Shown: positions 3,675 through 4,001 of the stretch, one piece after another
Layout: every line of letters starts with the position of its first letter
Numbering within the stretch: the stretch's first letter is position 1
Virus record (IMG/VR): IMGVR_UViG_2541047834_000005
Location: 1 to 44,807 of that record
Origin: a virus
Taxonomy: Duplodnaviria; Heunggongvirae; Uroviricota; Caudoviricetes
Reading direction: 5' to 3' (one strand)
DNA: 44,807 bases
The notes under the pieces: generated by a model
Databases searched by the model: none
Seen by the model: only the letters and a program-made list of their open reading frames with translations
Told to the model about the DNA's origin: nothing
Made by a program: the position numbers and the translations under genes

Positions 3675-3851
3675 TTTAATATGTTTTTTATTGGTGCCGC
3701 ATGCGCGGCACCAGAATTATACATCTGCACCATCAGCTCTTTTCCATGTGGATGTGGTTATGTTCCACCAAATAGGAAGGCCGAGCGTTGTATCGTAGTA
3801 TTCAACTGGCACAGTTGGAGAGACAGGCCTCTGCGCAGTTGTACCATATAA

Positions 3852-4001
3852 CAAAGATGTCAACGGAGAGGTGTAGGCCGCAAACTGACTGATGATGAAA
3901 AAAGGCGGCTGAATGCGGTACTCGACTACATCGACGCAGTGACAGCAGTTGATGCTGCCCCTGCGCCTGATATCAACTGGCCCGCTCCCCCGGTTGCGTA
4001 G
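3852..4001 (+). pseudogene. Inverted remnant of a second tail fibre assembly gene (tfa', C-terminal ~50 codons, no start codon)
   Basis: Stop-to-stop frame translates to ...[38 protein letters not shown], alignable with the C-terminus of the adjacent Tfa (...[36 protein letters not shown]); convergent with and overlapping tfa. Confidence 0.45.

Follow-up and report, generated by a model that had tools for sequence, protein, structure and literature searches.

The prophage and its gtr cassette

The 44.8-kb window (44,807 nucleotides, the whole stretch of DNA analyzed here) is the reverse complement of positions 873702-918508 of E. coli 042 (NC_017626.1), and the 741 bases around the region discussed below are 100% identical to that accession; a megablast of positions 3660-4400 against a phage collection returned no match. 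The window holds the att-lambda prophage of this strain, which lies between ybhC and ybhB and looks complete. It is a lambdoid element that combines int/xis and regulation and replication genes of the lambda type with an HK97-type head and a contractile, Mu-like tail and baseplate. Window positions 568-582 read TTAGTATAAAAAAGC, which we take to be the reverse complement of the phage lambda att core GCTTTTTTATACTAA and which fits the position of the prophage between ybhB and ybhC.

The late operon occupies the minus strand, and its last genes are those for the tail fiber (4378-5310) and then tfa (3973-4377). At the ybhB end of the prophage, the plus strand carries an O-antigen glucosylation cassette, gtrABC (926-3674), made up of gtrA (926-1288, annotated as GtrA family), gtrB (1285-2202, annotated as GT2), and a serotype-specific gtrC-like membrane protein gene (2199-3674, annotated as a hypothetical protein). 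In relatives, the gtrC position is taken by at least four other gtrC types or by an acyltransferase gene. Four features lie between the end of gtrC and the intact part of the late operon: a GC-rich hairpin (3691-3714), a tailspike stub on the minus strand (3717-3863), a short joint (3864-3875), and a tfa relic on the plus strand (3873-4001).

The fiber gene and an orphan crossover site

The fiber gene is an intact ORF of 310 codons on the minus strand, and it falls into two parts. Its constant N-terminal part, Sc (5034-5310), is of the e14 StfP type, with DNA identities of 96.7% to e14 stfP, 97.7% to SfIV gp20, and 96.3% to K-12 yfdL, whereas the variable, receptor-binding part, Sv (4378-5007), contains a glycine-rich domain (PF21722 Gly_rich_2, E=1.4e-18) and has no homology to the e14, SfIV, or K-12 fibers. 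The homology to these three fibers (96-98% at the DNA level) runs from the start codon and ends at window positions 5006-5009, where a 26-bp Pin/Gin-type crossover site, ATCTCCCAAACCAAGGTTTTCGAGAG (5008-5033), marks the constant/variable junction. This site is identical to the e14 stfP site at 25 of 26 positions and occurs once in the window, in which none is expected by chance; the sequence-only reading had proposed a search for such sites in the flanking DNA and had missed this one. With its homology ending exactly at the site, the fiber gene has the hallmark of a gene whose variable part is exchanged at a site bordering its constant part, the split-fiber organization of a segment inverted by an enzyme of the Gin/Pin/Cin/Hin type. 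Such segments, and their remnants, are a textbook class: in the Mu G segment and the P1 C segment, which are inverted by Gin and Cin, respectively, the fiber gene is split into Sc and Sv at the site, two convergent Sv-U sets are present, and the switches are functional, with an invertase, two sites, and an enhancer.

The same site accounts for a discrepancy in the annotation. PGAP divides the fiber ORF into an 'stfP pseudogene, missing C-terminus' and an overlapping 'glycine-rich domain-containing protein', whereas the counterpart in strain 135 is annotated as a single CDS; a constant/variable crossover site inside the ORF explains the division, which looks like an annotation artifact of the mosaic boundary. 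Downstream of the fiber gene, tfa encodes a 134-aa assembly protein (Caudo_TAP, E=1e-32), the partner of the expressed fiber. A sub-threshold Rfam match to IS009 at window positions 4022-4210 on the minus strand (48.8 bits against a gathering score of 117, E=6.8e-10) falls inside this CDS and most likely reflects homology among tfa sequences, not an RNA gene.

A truncated tfa converging on the intact gene

Facing tfa on the plus strand is tfa' (3873-4001), the 3' end of a tail-fiber assembly gene of the U'/TfaE type, reduced to its last 41-42 codons and the stop codon. The open frame (3852-3998, with the stop at 3999-4001) matches the Pfam family Caudo_TAP (PF02413) with E=4.7e-10 and scores 40.2 bits, well above the cutoff of 22.1. 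The match takes in profile positions 95-130 of 131, the extreme C-terminus; the frame also matches four PHROG tail-fiber-assembly/chaperone families with E values from 8e-14 to 3e-6. When aligned with a 200-aa Tfa, the fragment shares 80% identity with residues 160-200 (pairwise E=3e-21), and its DNA matches tfa 3' ends at 70-77%. That 200-aa protein, its closest full-length relative, is encoded within a Mu/P1-type segment on an E. coli plasmid of ~90 kb (L004), which, to judge by its size and genes, may be a P1-like phage-plasmid. Because tfa' is 43% identical to the co-resident intact Tfa and 80% identical to this foreign full-length protein, a local inverted duplication of the neighboring tfa is ruled out.

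The sequence-only reading had predicted, from the letters and ORF translations, a C-terminal Tfa-like fragment of ~50 residues that converges with tfa and overlaps it by ~30 bp. These matches bear out the fragment and its orientation, including when it is aligned with full-length Tfa proteins as that reading had advised, and the tail-to-tail overlap is exactly 29 bp (3973-4001, both strands). Its length was overestimated, since homology to full-length Tfa begins at frame residue 8-9 (window 3873-3876), leaving 41-42 residues. The interval that it assigned to the fragment (3675-4001) does contain the relic and is too wide: positions 3675-3716 are intergenic and 3717-3863 belong to the tailspike stub, so the different origin of the sequence to the left of the fragment was missed.

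About 160 N-terminal codons are missing from the relic, which has no start of its own and whose frame is closed upstream by a stop codon at 3849-3851; no promoter-like site feeding the fragment on the plus strand was found. It is thus a homologous fragment of the Caudo_TAP family, without the full-length domain and start of a functional gene, and RefSeq/PGAP already lists it as such (EC042_RS27560, window 3876-4001, 'tail fiber assembly protein, incomplete, missing N-terminus', pseudogene). Among seven E. coli relatives, the 29-bp overlap is 100% conserved; as the coding sequence for the end of the intact Tfa protein, it remains under selection. The 109 bp specific to the relic, in contrast, differ by up to 4.6% among these relatives as compared with ~1.2% for intact tfa, about a fourfold faster rate, and the amino acid sequence of tfa' is altered at five positions in most of the seven. 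This pattern fits neutral decay of the relic outside the stretch that it shares with the coding sequence of intact tfa. An Rfam scan of the relic region returned no family at threshold. With neither start codon nor promoter, faster decay, and no RNA family, we see no function for the relic itself that its sequence would suggest.

Two other readings of this stretch were tried and dropped. One tblastn run extended the similarity into a whole short TfaP-type gene at 3714-3992 on the plus strand (134-aa alignment, 25% identity); default tblastn settings shrink this alignment to the C-terminal 37 aa. A 15-nt inverted repeat flanking the relic (3705-3719 and 4009-4023, 87% complementary) is matched by several equally good chance pairs within the same 1.8 kb.

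What is left of the switch in the window falls short of a working one. No invertase-type recombinase is annotated in the 44.8 kb, and a tblastn search of the window with e14 PinE gave a best E value of 1.3, in line with the earlier statement that the invertase gene is absent. Instead of two inverted sites of ~26 bp lying 1.7-3 kb apart, there is the one at 5008-5033; a second was not found even at seven mismatches, nor was a half-site within the region. Of the second convergent set of variable fiber and tfa, only the 41-42 codons of tfa' are left, and no plus-strand Sv' was found. With one site and no invertase in the window, the switch is dead and the fiber is fixed in one orientation. The surviving part of the segment, from 5033 down to 3873, spans ~1.14 kb, about 60% of the 1.7-1.9 kb seen in intact relatives.

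The tailspike stub and the joint

The 42 bases of intergenic DNA after the gtrC stop codon (3675-3716) contain the GC-rich hairpin at 3691-3714 (-20.6 kcal/mol, z=-3.8), which lies between the gtrC stop and the stop of the stub. It has a proper U-tract on neither strand and was not called by a simple terminator scan; it may act as a weak terminator.

Converging on gtrC from the other side is the P22-like tailspike stub (3717-3863, minus strand), the last ~46 codons and stop of a tailspike gene. As an ORF it has 48 codons, with a TTG start and, on direct reading of the sequence, no Shine-Dalgarno motif. It matches phrog_20787 (E=2.6e-11) and the C-terminus of the tailspike family phrog_7173, is 62% identical to the final 42 aa of the CBA120 tailspike orf212, and lacks the N-terminal head-binding domain and β-helix that define a P22-like tailspike. 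To judge by these matches, the stub represents the C-terminus of a receptor-binding protein, of the tailspike and not of the fiber type. With its place on the strand of the late operon and its orientation away from tfa', the stub is not the Sv' that the segment lacks. The earlier statement that no second fiber C-terminus is present therefore stands as far as a plus-strand Sv' is concerned, and needs qualifying in that a tailspike-type receptor-binding C-terminus is encoded on the minus strand.

Homology to tailspikes ends at or before 3857 and homology to tfa starts at ~3873, which places the joint between the two relics at 3864-3875. The identical joint is found in the seven E. coli relatives and in 18 IMG/VR loci. 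From one relative to the next, the distal ~80 bp of the stub change along with the gtrC type, whereas all relatives, among them the locus L017 described below, share the proximal ~65 bp, including SPLTSLLYGTTAQRPVS..., and the joint to tfa'.

A scan of a genome collection with the stub peptide found at least five loci, four of them distant and uninformative. The fifth, L018, is a single short metagenomic contig (JAEXAX010000025.1, 4.5 kb, labeled as a Bacillota MAG) on which an ejection-protein gene and a tailspike gene are followed by convergent gtrC-gtrB-gtrA, a P22-type layout. Its tailspike has the P22 head-binding domain (Head_binding) and a β-helix (phrog_7173, E=3e-138), is frameshifted just before the conserved C-terminal motif, and carries the homolog of the stub as its 3' end. 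Over 2780 bp, from gtrA to a point 80 bp into the stub, the contig and the corresponding locus of E. coli EcPF15 (L014) are 98.6% identical; beyond that point the two diverge. In view of its gene content and this identity, L018 is probably mis-binned DNA of a P22-like enterobacterial phage. The P22-like layout, in which a tailspike converges on gtrABC next to attP/int, is thus seen in L018; in 042, unlike in that layout, only the last ~46 codons of the tailspike are left, and they are fused to a myovirus-type fiber module.

Two relatives show the block in other surroundings. In E. coli strain 300081 (L017, positions 4001-8225), the gtr cassette, the stub, and tfa' sit beside a second partial tfa and an unrelated fiber of 1259 aa, an arrangement implying that the relic block moved with the gtr cassette into a phage of a different tail-fiber type. 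In EcPF15 (L014, positions 5282-6290), the att-lambda prophage is almost wholly deleted, with Sc truncated and fused to a fragment of a PAPS-reductase gene; gtrABC, the two relics, tfa, Sv, and int/xis remain.

Working and decayed relatives

The closest working counterpart is the e14 P segment (ymfQ-stfP-tfaP / tfaE-stfE-pinE), which shares with 042 the tail module, the site, and the 29-bp overlap of the convergent assembly genes, there tfaP and tfaE; the C-terminus of TfaE is 68% identical to the 042 fragment. In e14, the two sites are inverted and lie 1797 nt apart, and the partner site adjoins pinE. e14 retains full tfaE, the variable part of stfE, the second site, and pinE, and its segment inverts (PMC12529663, PMC4272514); inversion at its repeats by PinE, PinQ, and PinR has been demonstrated experimentally (PMC12529663). 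Unlike e14, 042 has 41-42 codons of the inverted tfa, one site, no invertase, and a gtr cassette instead. Three IMG/VR loci also have an intact version of the module: L043, L088, and L092 have Sc parts 98-99% identical to that of 042 and PinE proteins 96-97% identical to that of e14, and carry both sites, 1.7-1.9 kb apart.

The convergent pair of tfa genes recurs outside this group. On the L004 plasmid and in L006, a prophage whose tail genes are of the P2 type, the pair has the 29-bp overlap and lies between inverted sites, beside a serine recombinase gene, and in a second prophage with a P2-type tail (L005) the overlap is 20 bp and a recombinase is present. The 29-bp geometry is common to e14, SfIV, K-12 CPS-53, L004, and L006. 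IMG/VR contains 62 loci with a homologous tfa, mostly full length (138-206 aa), and a full-length Pin-like gene lies within 5 kb in 33 of them; the 18 loci with the identical relic joint have no Pin homolog in their flanks (0/18). The search for an invertase in related prophages that the sequence-only reading had called for thus yields serine recombinases in e14, L004, and L006 and in about half of the homologous IMG/VR loci.

Decayed counterparts share the fate of 042 to different degrees. K-12 CPS-53/KpLE1 (intS-yfdGHI-[yodE]-tfaS-yfdK-yfdL) has the layout of 042, a gtr cassette followed by an inverted tfa pseudogene; tfaS overlaps the intact tfa (yfdK) by 29 bp, and the fiber gene yfdL carries the same crossover site. 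tfaS differs from the 042 relic in having 100 codons and in being another allele, 64% identical over the shared part, and the interval between gtrC and tfaS encodes RyeG/YodE where 042 has the tailspike stub. Shigella phage SfIV, a viable serotype-converting phage, has the same baseplate/fiber module with an inverted extra tfa, gp22, that overlaps gp21 by 29 bp; it has one crossover site and no invertase. Unlike the 042 relic, gp22 still has 174 codons and is followed by an IS element and then gtrIV. The published account presents it as one more assembly protein, found in SfIV alone (PMC3851460), and reading it as a switch relic is a modest reinterpretation of that account.

At the same position, then, the inverted tfa measures 603 bp in e14, 525 bp before the IS element in SfIV, 303 bp in K-12 (tfaS), and ~129 bp in 042. 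These lengths can be arranged as a decay series running from e14 through SfIV and K-12 to 042, and the pattern fits repeated erosion in situ. Among complete E. coli genomes with this tfa allele, 67 of 69 already carry the relic, and no intermediate combining this Sv-tfa allele with full-length tfa'-Sv'-pin was found; the history of this lineage is for that reason reconstructed from more distant relatives.

Origin of the two relics

We consider it highly probable, at roughly 85%, that the interval consists of two abutting, non-functional relics of different origin, with tfa' derived from a Pin/Gin-type invertible segment and the stub from a tailspike gene. The proposal that the locus is a relic of an invertible module of the Mu G/P1 C type is well supported, with the proviso that the window, having one site and no invertase, does not contain a working switch; 042 shares the logic of the Mu and P1 segments, but ~60% of one segment survives. 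We posit that the ancestral tail module, of the SfV/e14 type, had the order Sc-[site]-Sv-tfa> <tfa'-Sv'-[site]-pin. Of its invertible segment, 042 retains the left site (5008-5033), Sv and tfa, and 41-42 codons at the end of tfa', whereas the remainder of tfa' is gone along with Sv', the second site, and the invertase gene. The tailspike stub would have arrived together with the convergent gtr cassette, plausibly through a single illegitimate joint at ~3860-3875 between tfa' of the fiber module and a donor laid out as tailspike> <gtrCBA-att, and this joint would have replaced the distal half of the switch with an O-antigen-conversion module. The gtr cassette now fills the place expected for the invertase and the distal half of the invertible segment. 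Later exchanges of gtrC type, or of gtrC for an acyltransferase gene, could have proceeded by homologous recombination, with the stub on one side and gtrA/B or att/int on the other serving as arms. The homologies, the single crossover site, the lack of an invertase and of a second site, the joint common to the relatives, and the layout of the donor are all observed, and it is the order of these events and their reduction to one joint that we infer.

The loss need not have taken place in this lineage. A block of Sv, tfa, and the end of tfa' could have been copied into it already truncated, one end recombining at the crossover site or within the Sc homology and the other being an illegitimate break inside tfa', so that the lineage never owned an invertase. 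The mosaic boundary exactly at the crossover site, the behavior of Sv-tfa-tfa' as one unit in 67 of 69 genomes, and the failure to find an intermediate joining this allele to pin are all as such a transfer would have it, and the relic block beside an unrelated fiber type in L017 indicates that such blocks move. Against it, the relatives with the same tail module, e14 and the three loci with Sc 98-99% identical, have pin and both sites, and the inverted tfa found at this position shortens step by step from SfIV through K-12 to 042; we regard transfer of a truncated block as unlikely, while giving it more weight than the three rival readings taken up next. Since the fragment comes from an invertible segment either way, it is a variant of the two-relic explanation and not an alternative to it. 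A different question is whether the switch still works, with an invertase encoded elsewhere in the genome acting in trans on the site at 5008-5033. The 25/26 identity of this site to that of e14 invites the comparison with K-12, where inversion of the e14 segment can be driven in trans by the PinQ and PinR proteins of other prophages (PMC12529663), yet inversion requires two inverted sites and the window has one, and no alternative Sv' is left to express. Gin/Hin-family invertases need a Fis-bound enhancer in cis, normally inside the invertase gene, and here that gene is absent. A switch operated in trans is for these reasons very improbable.

The fragment, or the 48-codon ORF on the opposite strand, could instead be a functional small gene or regulatory element on the model of RyeG/YodE, given that K-12 expresses a toxic 48-aa protein, antisense, between gtrC (yfdI) and tfaS (PMC7498339), and that the minus-strand ORF at 3717-3863 is open in seven of the eight sequences compared. 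YodE (positions 4498-4644 of the K-12 CPS-53 locus L012, minus strand) equals the 042 stub in position, strand, and length; it has no sequence similarity to the 042 ORF and no PHROG match, and was rejected as its homolog. The openness of the ORF is explained by its recent descent from full-length tailspike genes, the last ~80 bp match a real tailspike 3' end and follow the gtrC type, and its TTG start has no Shine-Dalgarno motif ahead of it. One promoter-like site of consensus level lies upstream on the minus strand, but such sites are no more numerous than in shuffled sequence, and tfa' for its part lacks a start codon and changes at about four times the rate of tfa, in a region without an Rfam family at threshold. 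Taken together, these observations make a functional small gene improbable. That the similarity to Tfa is a matter of chance, as the shortness of the fragment (41-42 residues) might suggest, can hardly be entertained: the Pfam match lies above the gathering threshold, the identity to a full-length Tfa is 80%, tfa 3' ends match at the DNA level, and the geometry of the 29-bp overlap is that of six other loci, so that the alignments have already refuted this reading.

Consequences for the gtr cassette and for extra tfa genes

The tfa' relic itself is already known, being annotated in RefSeq and having a named counterpart in K-12, tfaS; it is an ordinary pseudogene, and the current understanding of invertible fiber segments is unchanged. 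What is mildly new is the recognition of a second relic, the tailspike stub, which on the evidence above marks transfer of the gtr cassette between P22-like and SfV-like phages and may mediate it. More specifically, and tentatively, the stub could serve as a homology anchor for swapping gtrC or acyltransferase cassettes between P22-like podoviruses and myovirus-tailed prophages of the SfV/e14 type; the grounds for this are that the boundary specific to the gtrC type falls inside the stub and that L014 and L018 are 98.6% identical. More speculatively, a Pin acting in trans could bring the orphan site together with those of other prophages and so give rise to inter-prophage rearrangements.

The case shows a serotype-conversion cassette displacing half of a host-range switch. 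For the prophage, it means that host range is fixed, a small point in practice, and for annotation it means that the 'extra tfa' of SfV-like phages and of K-12 (tfaS) is to be read as debris of a Pin-type switch and not as an additional assembly factor. Elsewhere in the tail operon, an OB-fold protein gene (10340-10726, plus strand) lies on the opposite strand between the tape-measure and DNA-circularization genes and looks like a moron insertion.
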